From Actinomycetota bacterium (GTDB lineage: Bacteria; Actinomycetota; Acidimicrobiia; Acidimicrobiales; Aldehydirespiratoraceae): 64,000 nucleotides of DNA. Positions within the stretch are counted from its first letter, which is position 1, and each line of letters begins with the position of its first letter. The stretch covers positions 258 to 64,257 of the forward strand of contig JBCCYT010000004.1 in the NCBI GenBank assembly GCA_039188975.1. The letters run 5' to 3'. The notes beneath the pieces were generated by a model. The model was not told the origin of the DNA, searched no databases, and was given only the letters and a program-made list of their open reading frames with translations. The translations under genes and the position numbers were made by a program. Shown piece after piece: positions 1 through 49,965 of the stretch.

Positions 1-630
1 TGCGGGCAAAACGCAGAGCACCAGCGGCAACAGCATCAGCACCGGAAGTCGACGGGCCCTTGTCTGGGCACTGCGCCGCCGAACGTCGCGAGCCTCGGCG
101 GCGGCACGAGCGAGGTTGGGGCCGAGCGGCGCCCCGTCGCGGGTTGCCGCAACGATGACCGCGATTGGCCTCCGCCCAGATGGCGGCAACCCGCGCCCGA
201 GGTGGACGAACACGTCCGCCACCGGCGCGCCCGCATCGAGCCGGTCGAGCGAACCAGACACGACCTCTCGGAGCGACCCCGGTAGCCACGGTGAGATCGT
301 TCGCAACGCCGCCGGTAGCGACAACCCCGCCGACACGGCCAAACCGAGCTGGTCGATCATGTCGGGGAGAGCGGCCTCGAGTGATCGCTCTCGCATCGAG
401 GTTGCAGCTCGTTCCCGCCAAACACCGACCGCAACGAGAACGGAAGGACCCGCCACCAGCAACGGAGGAACGATCGCGGCGGCGACCACCGAACCGGCAA
501 CGCCGAACACGATCTCGCGGTCTCGAACCCGACACAACGACGGAACCCGAGGCTGCACCACCCGGCGAATCGCATCGACCCATCGCCCGCGCGCGCTCGG
601 AACTCCGCCCAGGGGCCGAGGTGCACTCAC
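1..630 (-). CDS. TadC-like type II secretion system F-family membrane protein; the 3' end runs off the left edge
   Basis: I translated the minus strand by hand from GTG at 630-628: VSAPRPLGG...LPDMIDQLGLAVSAGLSLPAAL...RRLPVLMLLPLVLCVLPA. The frame stays open to position 1. It is missing from the ORF track because it has no stop in the window. The GspF/TadC-like motif and its position directly after the TadB-like gene support the call. Confidence 0.55.
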   Translation of the reverse strand, partial: MSAPRPLGGVPSARGRWVDAIRRVVQPRVPSLCRVRDREIVFGVAGSVVAAAIVPPLLVAGPSVLVAVGVWRERAATSMRERSLEAALPDMIDQLGLAVSAGLSLPAALRTISPWLPGSLREVVSGSLDRLDAGAPVADVFVHLGRGLPPSGRRPIAVIVAATRDGAPLGPNLARAAAEARDVRRRSAQTRARRLPVLMLLPLVLCVLPA

Positions 631-37742: not shown

Positions 37743-38776
37743 CCGGCTCTGCGCCGCTGCGACTCGCCGCGTTGCGCAAGGCATTCGACGATGTCGTCGC
37801 CGTCGATGGCGTCGACCTCGACATGGCGCCAGGTGAGCTGCTTGCCCTGGTCGGGCCCAGCGGCTGCGGCAAGTCGACGCTGCTGCGTTCGATCGCCGGG
37901 CTCCACCCGATCGACGCCGGCATGATCCGACTCGGTGGCGATCTCGTCGACGACGGCGCCGAACGCCTTCCACCGGAACGACGCTCGGTCGGGCTGGTCT
38001 TTCAGGAGCACGCGTTGTTCCCCCACTTGACCGTCGCCGACAACATCGGCTTCGGGCTGCGCGATGTCGACGACGGTGCCCGCCGGATCCGAGTCGACGA
38101 GATGCTCGAACTGGTGAGCCTCCACGACTACGGGGATCGCTACCCCCATGAGCTGTCAGGCGGCGAACGTCAACGGGTGGCGTTGGCCCGAGCGCTGGCG
38201 CCCGCCCCATCGCTCATGCTCTTCGATGAGCCCTTTGCCAGCCTCGACCACAACCTCCGGGTGCAGTTGCGCAGTGATGTCGTTGCGGCGTTGAAGGCGA
38301 CAGGCACACCTGCCGTGTTCGTGACCCACGACCAGCAGGAGGCCCTCGCGATCGGTGATCGCATTGCGGTCATGCGATCTGGGCGTATCCGTCAACTCGG
38401 TACTCCCGCCGAGGTCTATCACCGGCCGGCGGATCGGTTCGTGGGGGCGTTCATGGGACCGGCGAGCTTTCTCCCCATCTCGTCGGGTGGACGGACACCG
38501 CTGGGGCTCATCGACATGGGCGGCAAGTCGCCTGCGGAAACGACGGCCATGGTGCGCCCTGATGATGTCGTGTTCATGCCGGCGGAAGACGGCGACGTTG
38601 AGATCACCCGAGCCGAGTATCGAGGAAGTGGCTGGCAGGTCCGGGCCGTGATTCCCGGAGGCGCGGAGATCGACTTCGCAACCGGGCATCTCGTCGCCCC
38701 GGCGATCGGCGGCCGTGGACGCATCTCGCTCACTCCGGGCCACCGGCAGGTCGTCGTGCCCGATCAGGCCGATTGA
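37739..38776 (+). CDS. ABC transporter ATP-binding protein (FbpC-like)
   Basis: ATGA overlap with the permease gene. Has GPSGCGKSTLL, LSGGERQRVALARAL and MLFDEPF, plus a C-terminal TOBE-like tail. Confidence 0.85.
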   Translation: MTGSAPLRLAALRKAFDDVVAVDGVDLDMAPGELLALVGPSGCGKSTLLRSIAGLHPIDAGMIRLGGDLVDDGAERLPPERRSVGLVFQEHALFPHLTVADNIGFGLRDVDDGARRIRVDEMLELVSLHDYGDRYPHELSGGERQRVALARALAPAPSLMLFDEPFASLDHNLRVQLRSDVVAALKATGTPAVFVTHDQQEALAIGDRIAVMRSGRIRQLGTPAEVYHRPADRFVGAFMGPASFLPISSGGRTPLGLIDMGGKSPAETTAMVRPDDVVFMPAEDGDVEITRAEYRGSGWQVRAVIPGGAEIDFATGHLVAPAIGGRGRISLTPGHRQVVVPDQAD

Positions 38777-39637
38777 TCAGCGGCTGAGCTGGTCGATCGT
38801 CTGCTTTGCGGCCAAGGCCACGATCTCCGGGCCCCGCTCGCGGCCGACGCGGGGCCAGCCCTTTGCGAGCTCGATGACCTCAGGCGTCGGTTCGATGACG
38901 ACGGTACGGGTGCCTGCTCGTTCGAGCGCAGCGATCTCCTGGCGAAGCTGGTGCCGGGCCCGCAGCTTGATCGGCCCGCGGCCGGGTCGAGTCATGACCG
39001 ACGAGATGACCACGATCGCGTGGCCGTCATCAGCCATGAGGTCGGCATGGGTCGCGGACGCAACCGCGCCGTCGACGTGAGCGACACCATCGATGCGTTT
39101 GGGCCGGAACATGCCGGGCACGGCAGACGTGGCTTCCAGGGCGTCGCGGATGTCGACGTCGGTACGGTCGCGTCCGAAGACAACGAGATCTCCGGTGTCC
39201 ATCCGCACGCTCGGAAGCCACAGCGTCTCGGGCCACTCGATGTCGGCATCGACGGGGAACCGGCGCAACGGAAACGTCGGGAACACCCCACCAGGCAGCA
39301 GGCCGACAGCAGCGGTGATCGGGGCAGTTGGAAGTCGCTTCACCGCGGTCATGGGGGCGAGCGGGCGCAGGAAGCGCCGCCAGCCCCGTCGATCCATCGC
39401 GGCTCGCATCTCGGCCTGATCGGCTTCGGTCATCGGTGCGGCGATCGAGCCAAGCACCGTTTCGGTGTCGGCGCCGCTCAGCAGCGACGCCGCGATGGCG
39501 CCGCCTGCCGAGGTGCCGACCACTCGCTGGGCATCGGCGGGTTCCACACCGAGGGCAGTGCGAATGCCGTCGAGAACGCCGAGGTGAAATGCCCAGCCGA
39601 GCGGCCCGCCGGCGCCGAGCGCAATACCGACTGTCAT
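38777..39637 (-). CDS. patatin-like phospholipase
   Basis: Oxyanion GAGGPLG and the GTSAG nucleophile motif. The start is trimmed to ATG 39637, just after the VOC gene stop. Confidence 0.75.
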   Translation of the reverse strand: MTVGIALGAGGPLGWAFHLGVLDGIRTALGVEPADAQRVVGTSAGGAIAASLLSGADTETVLGSIAAPMTEADQAEMRAAMDRRGWRRFLRPLAPMTAVKRLPTAPITAAVGLLPGGVFPTFPLRRFPVDADIEWPETLWLPSVRMDTGDLVVFGRDRTDVDIRDALEATSAVPGMFRPKRIDGVAHVDGAVASATHADLMADDGHAIVVISSVMTRPGRGPIKLRARHQLRQEIAALERAGTRTVVIEPTPEVIELAKGWPRVGRERGPEIVALAAKQTIDQLSR

Positions 39638-39638
39638 G

Positions 39639-40043
39639 TCAGACCGGGCCCATCGCATGGCTCGACGTGATCGTGATCGCTGTGCCGCTTGGATCGAGCA
39701 CGGTGAAGCTGGAGTGGATACCGCCTCGCTCGATCCGGCTGGGTTCGATGCCGGCCGCCGTTGCGTCGGCGTGTGCGGCGTCGATGTCGTCGACCATCAG
39801 ATCGAAGGGTGCGCGAGCGCCCCGATCGACCTTGTTGACCTTGCGGACAATGAGGTGGGTACCGCCTCGAAGTTCGAGGATCGCCATCTGACCCATGTTG
39901 GCAACGGTACGGGTCCCGATTTGCTCGAAGAACCGCACGGCGGCGTCGAGGTCGGTGACCGGGTGGGGACCGATGTGGCCGATGGCGACGCCCGGGCGAG
40001 GGTCGGTGGTGGTGGTGTCTGGTTGGGTGGCGGTGAAAGCCAT
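39639..40043 (-). CDS. VOC/glyoxalase-bleomycin resistance fold protein
   Basis: 134 aa with HIGPHPVTDLDAAVRFFEQIG...FDLMVDDIDAAH, typical of the glyoxalase fold. Confidence 0.6.
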   Translation of the reverse strand: MAFTATQPDTTTTDPRPGVAIGHIGPHPVTDLDAAVRFFEQIGTRTVANMGQMAILELRGGTHLIVRKVNKVDRGARAPFDLMVDDIDAAHADATAAGIEPSRIERGGIHSSFTVLDPSGTAITITSSHAMGPV

Positions 40044-40139
40044 GGGGTGTCCCTACTTTCTGGGGTTTTGGGTACACCAGAAAGAACCGCACGAACGGCC
40101 CCACTATTCCAATTTACGAGACAAATTGTCTCGTGCTCG

Positions 40140-40334
40140 TCAATCCTCGTACGGATTGGACTCCGACAGCGTCAGATACTCGTTCGGCTCACCCTCATCG
40201 TCGGTGTTGTCGAGGTCGCTGTTCCGGCCGATCAACCAGCCGATCGCGCCGGCCAGCCCACCCATGCTCATGAGCACGCCTACCGGCATGATGACGAGCA
40301 GCATCGCGATGAAGATGATGGTTCCGACGTCCAT
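40140..40334 (-). CDS. small membrane protein with an acidic tail
   Basis: 64 aa: two hydrophobic segments followed by DLDNTDDEGEPNEYLTLSESNPYED. Confidence 0.4.
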   Translation of the reverse strand: MDVGTIIFIAMLLVIMPVGVLMSMGGLAGAIGWLIGRNSDLDNTDDEGEPNEYLTLSESNPYED

Positions 40335-40728: not shown

Positions 40729-40761
40729 GGGCCGAGCGTAGGCGCTCGGCCACCCCTAACC

Positions 40762-40823
40762 CTCCAACACCCGCATGAACGCGGAGGGAACATCCGTCGG
40801 CTCCCCCACCGTCGCCAGCTGAG
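40762..40823. repeat. direct repeat copy A (62 bp); a detached duplicate of the vWA gene 3' end
   Basis: 60 of 62 nt are identical to 43001..43062. On the minus strand it still reads QLATVGEPTDVPSAFMRVLEG*. Confidence 0.85.
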
Positions 40824-40844
40824 TAGTTCGTCGGTACCCGCCGC

Positions 40845-40964
40845 TCACCCACCCGCCAGCACCAGGAAACCGACGGCAACGCCGACGCCGAGACAGCAGA
40901 CGGTCACGAGCGCCACGAGCGCGCCCGAGAAACCGCAGTCCCGTTGATGTTGCTCGGAGTCCAC
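40845..40964 (-). CDS. possible 39-aa membrane micro-protein downstream of the metzincin gene
   Basis: GTG 40964 lies 25 nt after the upstream stop: VDSEQHQRDCGFSGALVALVTVCCLGVGVAVGFLVLAGG*. The evidence is the hydrophobic core and position only. Confidence 0.3.
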   Translation of the reverse strand: MDSEQHQRDCGFSGALVALVTVCCLGVGVAVGFLVLAGG

Positions 40965-40989
40965 GACCCAGCCTTTCAATCCGTCCGGT

Positions 40990-42927
40990 CTAGAAGAGGG
41001 AGCAGAACCGAGATGTGCGGAGCAAAATTCGCTGATCTCGGCCAAGCGTTGGGTCGGTTGGCGTGCAGGACTCTCGCATCAGGTTGTCTTCCCCGCCGAC
41101 ATGCCAGAGACCGCAGGCATGACCGACCTCATGTGCAAGCGTGCATATCTCGGGTTCGGCTTCGACAAAGACATAGTCGGTGAGCGGGCCCAGTGATACC
41201 CCACTCTTGTCGGGATCGTTGTCCACGACAAAGACGGTGAGCGTCGGACTCACTCCGACGAGACGCCGTGCCGATCCCCGAAGACCGAGGTCGGCGTTGG
41301 AGTTCGACCAGAGGTCGTGAAGCAACTGACCCGAGCCGTCGAGCGGAACCTTGGTGTCGTGAGCGCGCGTGTCGGCATACACCTCATCGATCGATACCAC
41401 TCGCAAACCAACGTTGGCTTCGCGGTCGAGTGTGTCCTGCGCGAACCGCAGCCATGCATCGACGGCAAATCGTTCTGCTACCGGAACGTACTCCGCCAAT
41501 CCAGCGTCGTAGCTCGTCCGGATGGCCACCCGCACGCGGATCTTCTTCCGAAGTGCCCCCCACGTGACGAGCTCGACGATGCCGTGAAAGAGGCGCCTTG
41601 CGACTTCAACCCACGTGCGGGCGATGTAGCCGAGAGCGGTGCCCACGAGCGGAATCGCGAACACAAGCTGAACTCCAAACGCGAGCACGTCCAAGACGAA
41701 GACCACGGCGGCGACAACGGCCTTCACGACCTGCCATATCGCCGAGACCCCTCCCTTGACCGCTCCCCATGCCTTCGCCAGCCAGGAACTGTCCTCGGCG
41801 GGACGCTGGTGATGGAGTTCATGAAGGCGACCGGTGTCATCGAAGTACGCGATGTGCTGGGTCCGCCCCCAGGTCCAAGCCGCAAGCTGCACAAGACTGC
41901 TGCTCGCTCGCGGAGCACCGGCCTCGACGGTCAGATCCTTGTGCCGCCACCCGGCGTTGCGTTCATAGACGAGTTCGTGGATGTGGGCGTCGTCTCCGAG
42001 GTACACGATGTGTTGTTGATCCTCGAACGTATATGCCGCAAGTGGGCCCCCGGCTGGAGGCGGCGAACCCTGGGCGGCGGTCGACAGATCCTGGTGCTGC
42101 CAGCCATTGCCATCACGTCGGAACACCAGCTCGTGGATGTGATCGTCGTCTCCTCGATAGACGACGTGCTGAGCGTTTCCCCACGAGTAACCAACGAGGT
42201 GTTCGCGTCCCGAGGCGACGGGCGGAGCCTGCGGGAGACCGGAGAGGAGGTTCTCGTTGTACCTCCAGGGTCCTCCGTTCTCGAAGTAGAACTCGGCGAC
42301 GGCCGGCCAGCGACGGCCAACGACATGTTGCCCGCCGTCCCATTCGTATCCCGTGAGCGAATCACCGATGGTGTTTTCCGCGTTGGTGGCTCTCGCATGA
42401 AGATCGGTGAACTTCCACGCGCCCGATCCTCGCCACAACTCTGCGACGGCGTTGTAGCCCCGGGGGTCAGCCTTGCGTTGCGTGTACACGATGTGCTGGT
42501 CACCGCGATATCGGTACTCCGCGAGGGGCGAGCTTGCTGTGGCTTGGGGTCCGCCCGCGGCGTCGTTCAACCAGTTGAGATCCCACGGCTGGTCGGGATG
42601 TTTGACCAGTTCCGCCACACCCAGTGGTCCCGATGGAAGACGCCGAGCAAGGGCAAGGACGTGCTGGGCTCCGCCATGCATGTAGCCGCGTAACGCTGCA
42701 GCGGAGGTCCATTCGAGCGGACCAGAATTCGCCGCATCGGTGAGGTTGTTCTGCAACCAACCCCGCCCGTCTCGGCGAAAGTAGAACTCGTGGACATGGT
42801 CATCAGCACCGCGAAACACCAGGTGCTGCGAGTCTCCCTTCGCGTATCCGGCCATTGGGCCAGTCGCCACAGGCGCGGTGCCTTTCACCGAGGCGGACAG
42901 CGCGGTGTATCGCCATGAGCTCGACAT
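40990..42927 (-). CDS. multidomain protein: 7 propeller-like repeats, a 2-TM hairpin, and a C-terminal metzincin-type zinc metallopeptidase
   Basis: Seven repeats of about 45-50 aa fit the pattern G[YW]x5QH[VI]V[YF]...D.H[IV]HE[LF]...W...L. The hydrophobic hairpin is AIWQVVKAVVAAVVFVLDVLAFGVQLVFAIPLVGTALGYIA. The C-terminus has HEVGHACGLWH (HExxHxxGxxH) followed by NLM. The start is ATG 42927, with GGGAGG 5 nt upstream. Confidence 0.7.
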   Translation of the reverse strand: MSSSWRYTALSASVKGTAPVATGPMAGYAKGDSQHLVFRGADDHVHEFYFRRDGRGWLQNNLTDAANSGPLEWTSAAALRGYMHGGAQHVLALARRLPSGPLGVAELVKHPDQPWDLNWLNDAAGGPQATASSPLAEYRYRGDQHIVYTQRKADPRGYNAVAELWRGSGAWKFTDLHARATNAENTIGDSLTGYEWDGGQHVVGRRWPAVAEFYFENGGPWRYNENLLSGLPQAPPVASGREHLVGYSWGNAQHVVYRGDDDHIHELVFRRDGNGWQHQDLSTAAQGSPPPAGGPLAAYTFEDQQHIVYLGDDAHIHELVYERNAGWRHKDLTVEAGAPRASSSLVQLAAWTWGRTQHIAYFDDTGRLHELHHQRPAEDSSWLAKAWGAVKGGVSAIWQVVKAVVAAVVFVLDVLAFGVQLVFAIPLVGTALGYIARTWVEVARRLFHGIVELVTWGALRKKIRVRVAIRTSYDAGLAEYVPVAERFAVDAWLRFAQDTLDREANVGLRVVSIDEVYADTRAHDTKVPLDGSGQLLHDLWSNSNADLGLRGSARRLVGVSPTLTVFVVDNDPDKSGVSLGPLTDYVFVEAEPEICTLAHEVGHACGLWHVGGEDNLMRESCTPTDPTLGRDQRILLRTSRFCSLF

Positions 42928-42994
42928 CGACACCTCCCACGAAGATCATCTGACCGCGGCGCAACACGGGAGTCAAGCGACAGCTCCCCGGCGC

Positions 42995-44017
42995 TCAGCG
43001 TTCCAACACCCGCATGAACGCCGAGGGAACATCCGTCGGCTCCCCCACCGTCGCCAGCTGAGCGCCGACCGAGCGGGCGAAGTCTTCAGCGTCGTTGGCG
43101 TCGTCGGTCGGTGCGATCACACACAACTCATCGAGCCCTCTCGCCACCGGGACGGCGTCACCGCCAGTCGTCGCTCGGCAATCCGACATCAGGATCGTCA
43201 CCCGCCGCTTCGCTCGGCTGCGGTCGAGCTGGCGCGCAGCCGCAACGAGCGCGCCGGCCAGGTCGGTCGTGCCCTGCCCTCGCAGCCGGAGCAGATCATC
43301 GACAACCGCCAACGACGATCGTGAATCGTCCTGGCTCTTGATCGCGATCACCCGATCGGCGAACGCAAGCACCGACCAATCAACCGGGGCGCGATGCGCA
43401 CAGGCCGCCGCGGCAACCGCCGCCGTCGCCAGCCGTTTGCCACTCATCGAACCGCTACGGTCGATCACCAGCGCAAGCGCCGTCGCCGGTTGGGTCCAGT
43501 GCCGAACCCGCAGCTCGGCGGCATCCACCAGCTCGCCGGTTGCCCGGGCATGCACCAACCCATCGAGGCTGGTGTCGAGATCGAGGTCGCCATCGGCTCG
43601 ATCAGCCGGCGACGAAGCCATCGACCCGACACCACGAGCCTGGACCGGTCCGGCCTTCGCCACGTCGAGCACGAGGCGCCCCGCGAGGCGAGCAGCCATC
43701 GCTGCCAGCTGGCGATCGGTCGCACCCCGCATCTGCGCGAGGAGAGACATCGCATGATCGGGGTCTTCATCGACGAGATCGGCCAGCGCATCGTCGTCGA
43801 TCTCGCCGACGTCGGGACTGATCTCCTCGAACTTCGGATCGCGTGCGAGTTGCGGACGAGGCGTCGTACGGCGATTGTCGTCCTCGATGGCCTGACGGGC
43901 GTCGTCGCCCTCCAAGGTCAGGGGGACGCCGGAGTCGCCCCGTCCGGGGCTGTCGCTTTTCCCGAGGAATCGCCGGCGTCCGGCGAAGGGTTTTCGCGAG
44001 CGAGTACGGCGTCCCAC
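42995..44017 (-). CDS. von Willebrand factor A (vWA) domain protein
   Basis: MIDAS motif LVIDRSGSMSG. It lies immediately downstream of the MoxR-like ATPase. The true start is probably nearer 43915 (TTG), because the long model overlaps the MoxR gene by 100 nt. Confidence 0.75.
   Translation of the reverse strand: MGRRTRSRKPFAGRRRFLGKSDSPGRGDSGVPLTLEGDDARQAIEDDNRRTTPRPQLARDPKFEEISPDVGEIDDDALADLVDEDPDHAMSLLAQMRGATDRQLAAMAARLAGRLVLDVAKAGPVQARGVGSMASSPADRADGDLDLDTSLDGLVHARATGELVDAAELRVRHWTQPATALALVIDRSGSMSGKRLATAAVAAAACAHRAPVDWSVLAFADRVIAIKSQDDSRSSLAVVDDLLRLRGQGTTDLAGALVAAARQLDRSRAKRRVTILMSDCRATTGGDAVPVARGLDELCVIAPTDDANDAEDFARSVGAQLATVGEPTDVPSAFMRVLER
43001..43062. repeat. direct repeat copy B (62 bp); the functional 3' end of the vWA gene
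   Basis: Encodes QLATVGEPTDVPSAFMRVLER*. See copy A at 40762..40823. Confidence 0.85.
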
Positions 44018-44859
44018 AGGTCGGTGATGACCGACTCCGGCGTTGCGCTGCCGCCCTCGTGGAGCCGTATCCGGCCCGAAAGCGCCGTGAGCGCAGCGTC
44101 GAGACCGACGGCGGCGTCGGTTGGGTCGAGGCCTCGCATCGACGCCAGCGCATGGCCAACTTCAACAAGGTCGATGGCGCCGCGAACCGATGAACCAACC
44201 CGAACCTCCGGATGCGTGCGGGTCCCGCGGGTGACGGCGACCGCCCGACGCCGCAGGATCCGGTCGTCGTCGGAGGTGTTGCGGACCACGATGTCGGACT
44301 CGTCGTCGAGCGACTGATACCCCATTGCGATGCGACACATCCGGTCATAGACCGCTCCTGACACCCGAGCGGTGCCGATGTTGTCGAACGGATTCATCGC
44401 AGCAACGAGACGGAACCCGTCGGCGGCCGGGATCGTGCCAATCCGGGGCAAGGTGAGCTCACCTTCGGACATCACCGTGATGAGCAGATTGACGGTCTCT
44501 TCGGGCACCCGATTGAGTTCCTCGACGTACAGCAGCGAGCCGTTGCGCAGCGCTTCGACCAACGGACCGTCGACGAAGACGTCCGGTGTGTAGCCGTCCT
44601 CGAGCACCCGCGACGGGTCGAACTGACCGGCGAGGCGGGCCGGAGTGAGTTCGGCGTTGCCTTCGACGAACACGAACCCGGTCCCGGCGGCAGCGGCAAC
44701 CTCCCGCAAGATCGTCGATTTCCCGGTTCCCGGCGGCCCCTCGAGCAGAACATGGCGGTCGGCCGCCAGTGCAGCGACGAGCACCTCGAGCTCGCGGCGC
44801 CGACCCACGACGCGCTGACACAGCGCGTCGATGACACCCAGATCGGTCAAGCTCGTCAT
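43918..44859 (-). CDS. MoxR-like AAA+ ATPase
   Basis: Walker A LLEGPPGTGKST and Walker B LLYVEELNR, with the MoxR/AAA_5-like size (313 aa). Confidence 0.8.
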   Translation of the reverse strand: MTSLTDLGVIDALCQRVVGRRRELEVLVAALAADRHVLLEGPPGTGKSTILREVAAAAGTGFVFVEGNAELTPARLAGQFDPSRVLEDGYTPDVFVDGPLVEALRNGSLLYVEELNRVPEETVNLLITVMSEGELTLPRIGTIPAADGFRLVAAMNPFDNIGTARVSGAVYDRMCRIAMGYQSLDDESDIVVRNTSDDDRILRRRAVAVTRGTRTHPEVRVGSSVRGAIDLVEVGHALASMRGLDPTDAAVGLDAALTALSGRIRLHEGGSATPESVITDLWDAVLARENPSPDAGDSSGKATAPDGATPASP

Positions 44860-47462: not shown

Positions 47463-48215
47463 TCAACCCCGGTTGGGGAGCGAGCCGAGGTCCGGGTCGG
47501 GGAGCGAGTCGAATGCGGTACGCAGGGCATCGCCCCAACCCGACGACACCGCCACCCAATCCGGGTTGTCGCGACTGATCCGGCGCGGTGGCATCACCGC
47601 AAACGAGTCGTTGTCGTACCAGGAGACGTCGAGGGGGGCGCCGACCGACAGATTGGCCTTGATCGTCGAGTCGAACGACACGAGCAGCAACTTGACCGCT
47701 TCGGAGAACGACATCGCCGGATCAAAGGCCCGAACGAGGATCGGCTTTCCGTACTTCGTTTCGCCGATCTGCAGGAACGGGGTGTCGTCGCTCGCTTCGA
47801 TGAAGTTTCCCTCGGGGTACACGAGGAAGAGCCGGGGCGGCATGCCATCGATCTGGCCACCGACGATCAGCGTGGCGTTGAAGGTCGACTCTGCCTCCTG
47901 CCCTTCGCCCTTGTGCCGAGCGATCGCGCCCCGGAGGACATCGCCGACCAGCTCGGCCACTCGAAACATCGTCGGCGCGTCGAGAATTGACGGGTCGCGC
48001 TCAGCGGGCACCTTCGTGCGCTCGTCGAGCACCGACATGACCGCCTGGGTGGTCGCCAGGTTGCCGGCCGCCATGATCGTGATCACCCGCTCACCGGGAA
48101 TCGACCACTGATGCATCTTGGTGAACGTCGAGATGTTGTCGACGCCCGCGTTCGTGCGGGTGTCGGACATGAAGATCAGGCCGTGGGCGAGTTTCATCCC
48201 GACGCAGTAGGTCAT
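47463..48215 (-). CDS. proteasome-type Ntn-hydrolase (Anbu, ancestral beta-subunit type)
   Basis: Begins MTYCVGMKLAHGLIFMSDTRTNAG, with Thr after the initiator Met. It has an ATGA overlap with the transglutaminase gene. Confidence 0.75.
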   Translation of the reverse strand: MTYCVGMKLAHGLIFMSDTRTNAGVDNISTFTKMHQWSIPGERVITIMAAGNLATTQAVMSVLDERTKVPAERDPSILDAPTMFRVAELVGDVLRGAIARHKGEGQEAESTFNATLIVGGQIDGMPPRLFLVYPEGNFIEASDDTPFLQIGETKYGKPILVRAFDPAMSFSEAVKLLLVSFDSTIKANLSVGAPLDVSWYDNDSFAVMPPRRISRDNPDWVAVSSGWGDALRTAFDSLPDPDLGSLPNRG

Positions 48216-49024
48216 TGTTGCGCGCTCCCGGATTGGGTGACGGACACGTCGACCTCGAGTGTCTCGCCTCCAGCTCCGCGTCGCACCCCGGAGATCGGTG
48301 CCGCCTCTCGATAGTCGAGTCCAACGGCGAGCCGGACATAGTGTTCGTCGGGCGAGATCTGGTTGGCGACGTCGAAGCCGACCCACCCGAGCCCCTCGAC
48401 CGAGACCTCGGCCCACCCGTGGCTGGCGTCCTCTTGGCCATCCTCGACGAAGAGATAGCCAGAGACGTATCGGGCCGGGAAACCCAGCAGCCGAGCCGTG
48501 GTGACGAAAACGTGGGCGTGGTCCTGGCAGACCCCGCTCCCCGAGTCGACGACCGCTTCGGCGGGTGTGTCGACATCGGTCGTGCCGGGTACGTAGTCGA
48601 CGGCGTCGCGCACGAGCGCCGAGAGGCGGTGGAGCGTCTCGACGTCGTCGGCTTGTCGGTCCAGGCCGCGAATGAGCCGACGGGTGTTCGTCCCTGGTGC
48701 GGTGAGCGCGGTGTTGCGCTGGTACAGCCAGCGAGGGGTGTGGCCTTGATCCGGCCCGACGACGCCGGCGGTGTTCGACGTTTCGACACCACCCGACGCA
48801 ATGACGTCGGTCTGGGTTGCGCCCGCATCGACCCGAACCAGTTCGACGACATTGCGATGATGGTCGGCAAAGCGGACCTGACGATGCCCCCCTTCGATCC
48901 GGGTGTCCCACCATTCGACGACCTGCGTGGCACCTGTACGCGGAATCAGACGCAGTTCGTGCAGGCCGTAGGCGACGGGCTCGTCGTAGCGGTATCGGGT
49001 GGTGTGGGTGACGGTGAGCCGCAT
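48212..49024 (-). CDS. transglutaminase-family protein
   Basis: N-terminal MRLTVTHTTRYRYDEPV (Bact_transglu_N type) plus a Cys core (GSGVCQDHAHVF). Confidence 0.75.
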   Translation of the reverse strand: MRLTVTHTTRYRYDEPVAYGLHELRLIPRTGATQVVEWWDTRIEGGHRQVRFADHHRNVVELVRVDAGATQTDVIASGGVETSNTAGVVGPDQGHTPRWLYQRNTALTAPGTNTRRLIRGLDRQADDVETLHRLSALVRDAVDYVPGTTDVDTPAEAVVDSGSGVCQDHAHVFVTTARLLGFPARYVSGYLFVEDGQEDASHGWAEVSVEGLGWVGFDVANQISPDEHYVRLAVGLDYREAAPISGVRRGAGGETLEVDVSVTQSGSAQQ

Positions 49025-49965
49025 CAGCTGTTGAACCGATAGTCGAGTTCGATCTGCGCACCGACGTCGTTGTTGGCGCGGATGCAGTCGGAGAGAAACT
49101 CGTGGAGCCCGTCGTCGATGATCGAGTCGATCGACCGGCCCGAGAGCCGCAGACGAAGGTCGTGCGACAGTTCATGACAGCGGTGCTGTTGGCCGTAGTC
49201 GCTGGCCAGGTGCACGAGATTGCGGTCGATCTTGTCGTAACAGAAGGCGAGTGAGCGCGGCATCTGGGGATCGAGGATCAAGAAGTCAGCGATGCCTGAG
49301 GCGGTGACGAGGCCACCATTGCGCCAACGGAACGCGCGCTGGGCGGACACGCTGCGCAAGATGGTCTCCCACTGGGCGTTGTCGAGCGAGCTGCCGACAT
49401 CGAGCGGCGACGGCAACAAGACGTAGTACTTCACGTCGAGGATGCGGGAAGTGTTGTCGGCCCGTTCGAGGAAGGTGCCGAGTCGAGCGAAGTTGTAGAT
49501 GTCGTTGCGCAGCATTGTGCCGTGCAGCGCGCCTCGCACGTAGGCGCTTTCTTGTCGAATGAGGCTGAGCACCCGGGGGAGGTCGCGAGTTGCGATCGGT
49601 CGTTGTAACGCATCACAGACAGCCAGCCAGGTGGCATTGGTGGCTTCCCACACCTCGCGGGTGAGCGCGGTGCGAACTTCGCGGGCGTTGGACCGGGCCT
49701 GATCGACGACCGATCGCACGCTCGACGGGTTGTTGCGGTCGCGTAGCAAGAAGTCGACAACGGCGGCGCCGTCGACCTCGCCGTGGCGATCGACATAGCC
49801 GTCGCGCTGCCCGGCGGTGGAGAGAACCGAATCCCATTCGTCGTAGAGGTCGTTGGTGCGGGTCAGGGCAATCCGCATCCCCGCTTCGATGAGACGGGCG
49901 GTGTTCTCACTGCGTTCGAGGTAGCGGAACATCCAGTAGAGCCCGCCCGCGGTGCGTCCCAGCAT
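49024..49965 (-). CDS. alpha-E domain protein (DUF403)
   Basis: Begins MLGRTAGGLYWMFRYLERSENTARL, typical of alpha-E, and is coupled to both neighbours. Confidence 0.75.
   Translation of the reverse strand: MLGRTAGGLYWMFRYLERSENTARLIEAGMRIALTRTNDLYDEWDSVLSTAGQRDGYVDRHGEVDGAAVVDFLLRDRNNPSSVRSVVDQARSNAREVRTALTREVWEATNATWLAVCDALQRPIATRDLPRVLSLIRQESAYVRGALHGTMLRNDIYNFARLGTFLERADNTSRILDVKYYVLLPSPLDVGSSLDNAQWETILRSVSAQRAFRWRNGGLVTASGIADFLILDPQMPRSLAFCYDKIDRNLVHLASDYGQQHRCHELSHDLRLRLSGRSIDSIIDDGLHEFLSDCIRANNDVGAQIELDYRFNS

Follow-up and report, generated by a model that had tools for sequence, protein, structure and literature searches.

The 64,000-nucleotide stretch analyzed here (the window; contig JBCCYT010000004.1 of GenBank assembly GCA_039188975.1, from an Actinomycetota bacterium of the family Aldehydirespiratoraceae) carries on its minus strand a gene for a 645 amino acid protein, and this gene raises the question of what a repeat domain, a hydrophobic segment and a metzincin protease signature are doing in one polypeptide chain and on which side of the membrane they act. 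A first-pass annotation, based on the letters of the DNA alone, had described the protein as a propeller-like or lectin-like domain of seven repeats followed by two transmembrane (TM) helices and a metzincin, all of them predicted to be cytoplasmic, and had likened it to effectors of conflict or abortive-infection systems. Our analysis, which included structure prediction, fold comparison, profile searches and a survey of related loci, identified an architecture of propeller, hairpin and metzincin that is both real and rare, so the unusual three-part layout reported earlier holds up. The anatomy can be given with high confidence: a seven-bladed, lectin-type beta-propeller that belongs with the PLL/AAL fucose lectins, a long helical hairpin that turns at an invariant IPxxG motif, and a small, apparently active metzincin. 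The hairpin and the metzincin together are a conserved module that defines an undescribed bacterial family, sparse but very widely distributed.

The gene itself is intact. Its longest open reading frame (ORF; 40990..42933, minus strand) reaches a GTG at 42933; the ATG at 42927 is the best start, because a Shine-Dalgarno-like GGGAGG lies 5 nt upstream of it, and this choice supports the 645-residue ORF proposed earlier. A near-identical protein (P0001; 99.8% identity), annotated as hypothetical in an Actinomycetota metagenome-assembled genome with the same gene order, has its NCBI start at V20. The two proteins differ at one position (E613K): residue 613 (41089-41091), two residues ahead of the invariant Asn of the Met-turn, is Glu in the window protein (GGEDNLM) and Lys in P0001 (GGKDNLM). 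The N-terminus of the window protein (MSSSWRYTALSASVKGTAPVATGP) has no hydrophobic core, and an upstream extension is impossible because the ORF begins at the first start codon following a stop; the protein is thus without a classical signal peptide, as had been noted before. A direct sequence search with the full-length protein returned zero matches among PDB sequences. The G+C content is ~66% over the window, and the G+C content at third codon positions (GC3) is 0.71 in the protease gene compared with 0.76-0.84 in its neighbors.

Seven repeats centered on a QH pair can be read directly in the N-terminal part of the protein, and AlphaFold2 modeled the full chain (predicted local distance difference test score, pLDDT, 80; predicted template modeling score, pTM, 0.58) with seven four-stranded blades over residues 21-386, of which the second (residues ~77-140) is degenerate and has a low pLDDT. 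The top matches of this propeller in the PDB (Foldseek) were the Photorhabdus lectins PLL3, PLL5, PHL and PLL2 (E 3e-11 to 3e-9), with template modeling scores of 0.58-0.65 normalized to the target; the fungal fucose lectins AAL, AOL and FleA ranked next, the lectin matches together spanning E 3e-11 to 1e-7. In the predicted structure, therefore, the propeller is a PLL/AAL-type lectin by fold, sharing the seven blades of PLL in a superfamily whose propellers have six or seven four-stranded blades, and the earlier suggestion of a seven-bladed or lectin-like fold proved apt. By sequence this kinship is only weakly supported. Identity to the PLL/AAL lectins is ~10-13%; a profile built from the window propeller and eight relatives matched FleA with E 3.7e-4 and AAL with E 2-3e-3; and three relatives of the propeller (P0003, P0006, and P0011) exceed the threshold of the AAL/FleA family PF07938, which the window protein itself did not match in Pfam. 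Blades 2-4 are degenerate in the window protein, and in a profile alignment the Arg of the AAL-type sugar site falls where the window propeller's subfamily has no conserved Arg; ligand binding by this propeller is putative. Known PLL/AAL lectins are stand-alone proteins and are not fused to proteases. Other relatives of the window propeller are either stand-alone proteins that have signal peptides or fusions to a Peptidase_A4 domain, to a trypsin (with a signal peptide) or to another zincin. Like the window protein, PLL lectins lack a recognizable signal peptide; PLL2 and PLL3 were nevertheless detected in the extracellular proteome (PMC12203525). The propeller had also been called sensor-like, a label that fits poorly with a lectin-type fold whose characterized relatives act outside the cell (PMC12203525).

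The C-terminal domain was identified as a metzincin by several lines of analysis. When the hairpin and the catalytic domain were modeled together (pLDDT 87, pTM 0.85), AlphaFold2 placed a 37-residue helix, the IPxxG turn and a 28-residue helix ahead of an alpha/beta domain. Foldseek matched the catalytic domain to fragilysin (Bacteroides fragilis toxin, BFT; E 2e-7) and to adamalysins and ADAMs (E ~1e-6 to 1e-5), as well as to ADAMTS proteins; there were 151 PDB matches at E<=1e-3, and among the matches listed all 50 were fragilysin, an adamalysin, an ADAM or an ADAMTS. The HEVGHACGLWH signature reported earlier is intact, and the NLM that had been put forward as a candidate Met-turn aligns with the Met-turn of matrix metalloproteinases (MMPs), with M617 lying 8 residues past H609, the MMP spacing (HExGHxxGLxH-x7-M). 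In an alignment of 24 sequences, the first His, the Glu and the second His of the zinc motif are invariant, the third His (or Asp) is nearly so, and the Asn and Leu of the Met-turn are invariant. Since the predicted fold match to fragilysin and adamalysins, the zinc motif and the Met-turn all agree, the assignment of the protein to the metzincin clan, with its catalytic residues intact, is solid. Structure prediction thus yielded both a propeller and a zincin fold, the metzincin version of which is characterized by a five-stranded sheet together with an active-site helix and a C-terminal helix.

Within the clan, the domain is, as modeled, apparently an active zinc endopeptidase that is structurally closest to fragilysin (MEROPS M10C) and to the adamalysins/ADAMs (M12B), to which it corresponds in the HExxHxxGxxH motif, in the Met-turn and in its compact size of ~190 amino acids (template modeling score ~0.5-0.6 normalized to the mature enzymes). 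Identity to these proteins is, however, just 12-16%, and the window protein has neither a signal peptide nor an N-terminal prodomain, the helical hairpin standing in the place of the pro-segment. Adamalysins have an Asp after the third His, whereas this position is variable in the family and is Val in the window protein, which scored 15-17 bits against the PF13688/reprolysin cut-off of 27 and is therefore not classed as a reprolysin; among the 24 relatives, nine gave a reprolysin-type Pfam match at E<=0.01. The matrixins (MMPs, M10A) have the zinc motif and the Met-turn at identical spacing, and a profile search of PDB sequences reached them with E ~1e-3 over ~30 residues that cover the zinc motif and the Met-turn only. 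Three matrixin features are missing from the window protein, namely a Ser following the third His, a prodomain with a cysteine switch, and a hemopexin domain; with 15.2-17.3 bits against the PF00413 cut-off of 24, a Val after H609 and no prodomain, it is not a matrixin either. An NCBIfam scan of the window protein returned nothing meaningful.

Between the propeller and the protease lies a single hydrophobic stretch of 46 residues (394-439), which the first-pass annotation had divided into two adjacent hydrophobic TM helices. AlphaFold2 does predict a helical hairpin here, but the turn at I425-P426-x-x-G429 disagrees with that division, and only helix 1 is hydrophobic, marginally so. The best 19-23-residue segment of helix 1 (403-425) has an apparent insertion energy of +1.5 to +1.9 kcal/mol and is the sole TM candidate in the protein, whereas helix 2 contains six Asp, Glu, Lys or Arg residues and one His and has a summed Hessa-scale free energy above +11 kcal/mol; these sums are crude, as they ignore position dependence, and are indicative only. 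A basic stretch with an invariant Lys (RKKIRVR) starts five residues past helix 2. When segments at or below +1 kcal/mol were counted as TM-grade by the same crude sum, 70% of 240 family members had none, 24% had one and 6% had two. Both hairpin helices bear regularly placed, conserved acidic residues across the family, with a median longest uncharged run of 13-14 residues. Because helix 2 is charged and helix 1 is marginal, an even number of TM segments with both domains in the cytoplasm is not established for the window protein, and a TM-grade count of 0, 1 or 2 across the family leaves this deduction unsupported. Likewise, since an inconsistent TM parity in proteins without signal peptides cannot place a conserved domain on one side of the membrane, the hairpin helices are unlikely, judging from sequence, to be ordinary constitutive TM segments.

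To define the family, residues 378-645 were searched against 1.84 billion representative proteins, which returned 248 representative clusters with a cut-off of E<=1e-3, among which 69 also passed E<=1e-10, and a profile search added 179 proteins. The module is always C-terminal: the match reaches the last residues in every member, and the full-length ones include the hydrophobic region. Its conserved positions are an invariant I-P-x-x-G turn, an invariant Lys before the first strand, a GCSLGP motif, the zinc motif HExGHACxLxH, an invariant N-L before the Met, and a tail with a conserved Q...R.S (consensus SRHVTYF), the proteins ending in sequences of the type SR[HF]x[TS][YLF][FLW]. Among 185,579 species genomes, 119 contain the module, including genomes of Chloroflexota, Bacteroidota, Actinomycetota, Proteobacteria, Zixibacteria, Calditrichota, Acidobacteriota and Gemmatimonadota, and a Bacillus cereus plasmid carries a further copy. 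In Pfam the module gave only sub-threshold M10/reprolysin matches, with no model above its threshold.

Ahead of the module, the family carries interchangeable N-terminal heads, namely the PLL-type propeller, DUF5648 repeats (E 1e-37 to 4e-42), FG-GAP repeats and a weak match resembling a carbohydrate-binding module; other members begin with Cys-rich charged segments or short cationic helices. DUF5648 is the glycan-recognizing receptor-binding domain of the antibacterial toxins BSAP-2 and BSAP-3 (bioRxiv 10.1101/2025.01.06.631476). In the searched collections, the propeller is combined with the protease module, beyond P0001, only in P0087 and in the partial sequences P0024 and P0182. No classical signal peptide was found in the surveyed members, with one possible exception (P0236). 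In a large subfamily of about 220-250 amino acids (P0211-P0271, P0056, P0088, and others), helix 1 gives way to an N-terminal stretch that begins with a strikingly conserved MG[FLW][WF]S and continues as a polybasic amphipathic helix (MG[FLW]WS..KK..KK in proteins of 220-246 amino acids). An N-myristoylation-like reading of the MG[FLW]WS N-termini was dropped, as the aromatic residue after Gly and, in many members, the Lys at position 6 do not fit the consensus.

The catalytic domain also contains pairs of Cys that covary across the family. At alignment columns 529/577 both residues are Cys in 191 sequences and neither is in 16, and at columns 466/548 the corresponding numbers are 48 and 153; disulfides in an exported domain would be expected to leave such a pattern, although in this family these bonds are putative. 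Mean-field direct coupling analysis of 240 sequences, aimed at packing of the hairpin against the catalytic domain, gave mostly gap artefacts in helix 1; only its top non-local pair, 596/624, was informative, and we count this pair with the Cys pattern.

A survey of homolog neighborhoods identified a candidate partner of the protease. The first five contexts that were inspected held unrelated genes, with no shared upstream partner; clustering of the flanking ORFs from 80 loci then revealed one conserved neighbor, a protein of 130-170 amino acids that is soluble in its N-terminal part and has two TM helices after an invariant [FY]xCGCxxG motif. The gene for this CGC partner lies adjacent to the protease gene on the same strand, often overlapping it, and is present in ~20 of 86 loci from six phyla and beside the Bacillus cereus plasmid copy. 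The partner has no Pfam match, and the window contains no gene for it. The contexts of ten other loci consist mostly of housekeeping genes. Two members lie in conjugative elements with a VirD4/TraG-type coupling protein, a relaxase, ParB and a VirB4-like AAA_10 protein (L002, from Mycolicibacterium mageritense, and L093, from a metagenome), and a third (L090) adjoins a type I restriction-modification system.

In the window, the protease gene is preceded on the same strand by genes for an alcohol dehydrogenase (ADH), a MoxR ATPase and a ~306 amino acid protein with a von Willebrand factor A (vWA) domain, and is followed by a RidA gene. In the syntenic contig L095 (81.5% DNA identity), ADH-MoxR-vWA and RidA are retained without the protease gene: the slot between vWA and RidA spans 2,275 bp in the window (40741-43016), where it holds the 1.94-kb protease gene, and 567 bp in L095 (L095:7794-8361), where it holds an unrelated Cys-rich ORF of 155 amino acids. 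The protease gene fills a variable slot in a syntenic ADH-MoxR-vWA...RidA block. A second apparent indel was observed nearby, at ~38580-40140, a region that includes glyoxalase-like and patatin-like genes (38777-40043) and has no aligned counterpart in L095 (L095:8951-9206).

The genes upstream of the protease recall the MoxR-vWA-beta-propeller ternary conflict systems, which are characterized by a propeller fused to the vWA protein, linkage of the three genes and often a GxxxTAKS P-loop in MoxR (Kaur et al., 2020; PMC7159879). As in these systems, MoxR and vWA genes lie immediately upstream of a gene whose product combines a propeller with a membrane-spanning-like segment, and the MoxR protein passes the threshold of PF20030. 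This lead was nevertheless rejected. The vWA protein has only VWA_2, VWA and VWA_CoxE domains and no fused propeller, unlike the ternary systems (PMC7159879); the P-loop of MoxR is a normal GPPGTGKS; and none of the 86 related loci has a MoxR, vWA, RidA or ADH homolog nearby. Together with the >600 close homologs of vWA in the searched collection, against essentially one cluster for the protease, and with the swap of slot contents in L095, these features indicate that the linkage is incidental. It is therefore most improbable that the protein has a housekeeping role as a membrane protease, or serves MoxR-vWA as a client or partner co-transcribed in an ADH-MoxR-vWA-protease-RidA unit, even though the genes share a strand, only 67 nt separate vWA from the protease gene, no terminator-like site was found between them on the coding strand, and the PF20030 match would be in keeping with such a role; MoxR scores far higher on the generic AAA_5 model. 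We also observed that PF20030 appears to catch ordinary CoxD/MoxR-like ATPases.

Further upstream of these genes (~47463-49175, minus strand, and beyond; also L089:1473-5408) lies a cluster encoding an ATP-grasp protein (CP_ATPgrasp), an Alpha-E protein, a transglutaminase and a proteasome-type subunit, which we take to resemble the Anbu/BPH proteasome-homolog operon. A 570 amino acid ORF in this region probably has an over-extended N-terminus. The coordinates of the features of the protease gene, together with those of MoxR and of representative partner genes, are compiled in Table 1.

Table 1. Features of the protease gene and its product, with the neighboring MoxR gene and examples of the CGC partner gene (coordinates refer to the window unless a locus is named).
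Feature	Residues	Coordinates	Strand	Basis and remarks
Complete coding sequence, 645 amino acids plus stop	1-645	40990..42927	-	ORF list and direct reading
Shine-Dalgarno-like GGGAGG, 5 nt before ATG 42927		42933..42938	-	Read directly from the sequence
Seven-bladed PLL/AAL-type lectin beta-propeller (predicted)	21-386	41770..42867	-	Repeats, AlphaFold2 strands, Foldseek, profile
Propeller blades (approximate)	21-61, 77-140 (degenerate), 143-179, 191-224, 244-280, 292-331, 348-386			
Hairpin helix 1 (predicted)	392-423	41659..41754	-	AlphaFold2; hydrophobic but with K402 and D413
Hairpin turn I425-P426-L-V-G429	425-429	41641..41655	-	AlphaFold2 and alignment; I, P and G invariant in the family
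Hairpin helix 2 (predicted)	428-455	41563..41646	-	AlphaFold2; amphipathic, charged (R, E, R, R, H, E), not TM-grade
Compact metzincin catalytic domain (predicted)	458-645	40993..41556	-	AlphaFold2, Foldseek, profile search of PDB
Zinc-binding motif H599-E600-V-G-H603-A-C605-G606-L-W-H609	599-609	41101..41133	-	Sequence and family alignment
Met-turn N615-L616-M617	615-617	41077..41085	-	Sequence, family alignment, MMP alignment
MoxR ATPase		43918-44859	-	PF20030 (bpMoxR) 35.5 bits against a threshold of 27; AAA_5 84 bits
CGC partner, examples		L006:6484-6990; L013:5212-5643; L094:1449-1889		Outside the window

Taking these observations into account, we tentatively favor, at somewhat less than an even chance, the reading that the gene was acquired horizontally and that its product is a toxin-like or bacteriocin-like protease which targets glycans and associates with membranes. 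Its export, its target and the roles of the hairpin and of the partner are what we infer, as follows. The protein would be made without a signal peptide and would reach its target non-classically or by release, in the manner of the PLL lectins. A surface glycan would be bound by the swappable N-terminal module, which in the window protein is the lectin propeller; the hairpin, marginally hydrophobic and studded with acidic residues, would provide conditional membrane binding or insertion, instead of a constitutive two-pass anchor; and the metzincin would cut envelope or membrane-proximal proteins. In many relatives the CGC partner is a candidate immunity protein or inhibitor, a role for which the window copy has no partner. 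In support of this reading we count the fold assignments, the intact catalytic motif, the exchange of one glycan-type head for another, the role of DUF5648 in the BSAP toxins, the covarying Cys and the acidic residues of the hairpin, as well as the conserved C-terminal module, the wide range of phyla, the extracellular precedent of the PLL lectins, the propeller relatives that are fused to secreted-type peptidases or have signal peptides of their own, and the small membrane partner. The status of the gene as accessory is suggested by its GC3, by the variable slot between vWA and RidA and by the conjugative-element and restriction-modification neighbors of other members.

Several observations weigh against a toxin. 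Neither an export signal nor a linkage to a secretion system was found for any member. In the subfamily of ~220-246 amino acids, which includes diderm Bacteroidota, only a cationic amphipathic helix precedes the protease, and this fits peripheral binding at the cytoplasmic membrane face of the producer at least equally well. Basic residues flank the hairpin at either end, so the positive-inside rule favors an arrangement with both termini inside (N-in/C-in), and the CGC motif of the partner is predicted on the cytoplasmic side. Many members have charged, Cys-rich N-termini that resemble zinc-binding modules of cytoplasmic proteins, and the conserved Cys of the catalytic domain may form a structural zinc site in place of disulfides. 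In the window protein itself, L529 and V577 stand in place of the main conserved Cys pair, with C595 and C621 retained, and sugar binding by its degenerate propeller is putative. Finally, most genomic contexts of the family are made up of ordinary housekeeping genes.

A number of these points lend themselves to the cytoplasmic-face arrangement proposed by the first-pass annotation, in which the hairpin would be a two-pass or in-plane monotopic anchor, the propeller would sense a cytoplasmic ligand, and the metzincin would be a conflict or abortive-infection effector or some other regulated intracellular protease. This arrangement, which we regard as doubtful but deserving of serious consideration, accounts well for ~260 members without a signal peptide in monoderm and diderm phyla alike, for the basic residues that flank the hairpin, among them the stretch past helix 2 with its invariant Lys, for the subfamily with nothing but a cationic amphipathic helix (akin to the membrane-targeting sequences of MinD and FtsA), for a CGC partner that has no signal peptide and a CGC motif on the cytoplasmic side, and for a sporadic, accessory distribution. 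The membrane-tethered zinc proteases FtsH (M41) and HtpX (M48), which are cytoplasmic, and the cytosolic archaemetzincins (with an HExxHxxGxxHC...Cys4 motif) provide precedents for a zincin held at, or acting on, the cytoplasmic side; these proteins differ from the window protein in fold and family, they all lack a lectin propeller as well as an IPxxG hairpin, and no homology to them was detected in Pfam, NCBIfam, the profile search of the PDB or Foldseek. As for a role in defense, PADLOC-DB 2.0 returned no match for the protease or the vWA protein and only generic P-loop matches for MoxR, the MoxR-vWA pair is not conserved with the family, and the neighborhood survey found no conserved association with this pair or with any nucleoside triphosphatase (NTPase) or sensor gene, the CGC partner being found instead; the likeness to conflict and abortive-infection effectors drawn earlier is thus not borne out. 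No phage-encoded homolog was found by tblastn in 50,697 phage records, and a phage origin was set aside, since a fold search of BFVD likewise gave just generic viral matrixin-like proteases. A cytoplasmic location is also hard to reconcile with recognizable N-terminal modules that are all of glycan-binding, typically extracellular kinds, with the covarying Cys pairs of the catalytic domain, and with a TM-grade count that varies across the family and a window helix 2 that is not TM-grade.

The covarying Cys pairs would suit an outward-facing catalytic domain, and almost all characterized metzincins are extracellular. Both facts could be accommodated by a type II anchored ectoprotease, in which helix 1 (~403-425) is a single signal-anchor that leaves the propeller inside and places helix 2 and the metzincin outside; the window protein has indeed one marginal TM candidate only, and many short relatives consist of a polybasic N-terminus followed by one hydrophobic segment, which resembles a signal-anchor. 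We consider this arrangement quite improbable, as it would leave a lectin-type propeller, DUF5648 or FG-GAP repeats in the cytoplasm, the strongly basic segment after the TM candidate (R, RR, RKK, R, R) disfavors an outside C-terminus, and by the crude sum TM-grade segments are missing from 70% of the members.

A bolder version of the favored glycan-targeted protease toxin can also be formulated. It is conceivable, although unlikely, that the family represents a new class of single-chain protease toxins without signal peptides, in which a swappable glycan-binding head is followed by an acid-studded hairpin that would insert into or cross the target membrane and by a metzincin, while the two-TM partner would be a membrane immunity factor whose invariant CGC would cap the catalytic zinc in trans, that is, a "cysteine switch" supplied from a separate gene. 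In this scheme the hairpin is likened, by analogy, to TH8-9 of diphtheria toxin or to colicin hairpins. The resemblance to modular toxins in which a receptor-binding domain is joined to a membrane-active element, in some cases also to an enzymatic domain (diphtheria toxin, AIP56, colicins, BSAPs, and lectin-like bacteriocins), is one of functional analogy only, and lies in the glycan-binding module (the DUF5648 of some family members is also found in BSAP-2 and BSAP-3), the acid-bearing hydrophobic hairpin, the enzymatic domain, the frequent absence of a signal peptide and the small adjacent immunity-like membrane protein. The domain order of diphtheria toxin and AIP56 is reversed relative to that of the window protein. 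Since no sequence or fold homology was found between the hairpin region and toxin translocation domains, the comparison stays an analogy.

Metzincins are among the best-studied proteases. The module described here, an IPxxG hairpin joined to a minimal fragilysin-like domain, lies below every curated Pfam and NCBIfam threshold and spans at least nine bacterial phyla as well as plasmids and conjugative elements. The fusions to glycan-binding heads and the frequent CGC partner suggest a self-contained two-gene system that delivers or restrains a protease at a membrane. If the protein is intracellular, it would be a rare metzincin of the cytoplasmic face that carries a lectin fold; if it is an exported toxin, as we tentatively favor, the family would constitute a new family of protease bacteriocins or toxins, with a new receptor-module logic.

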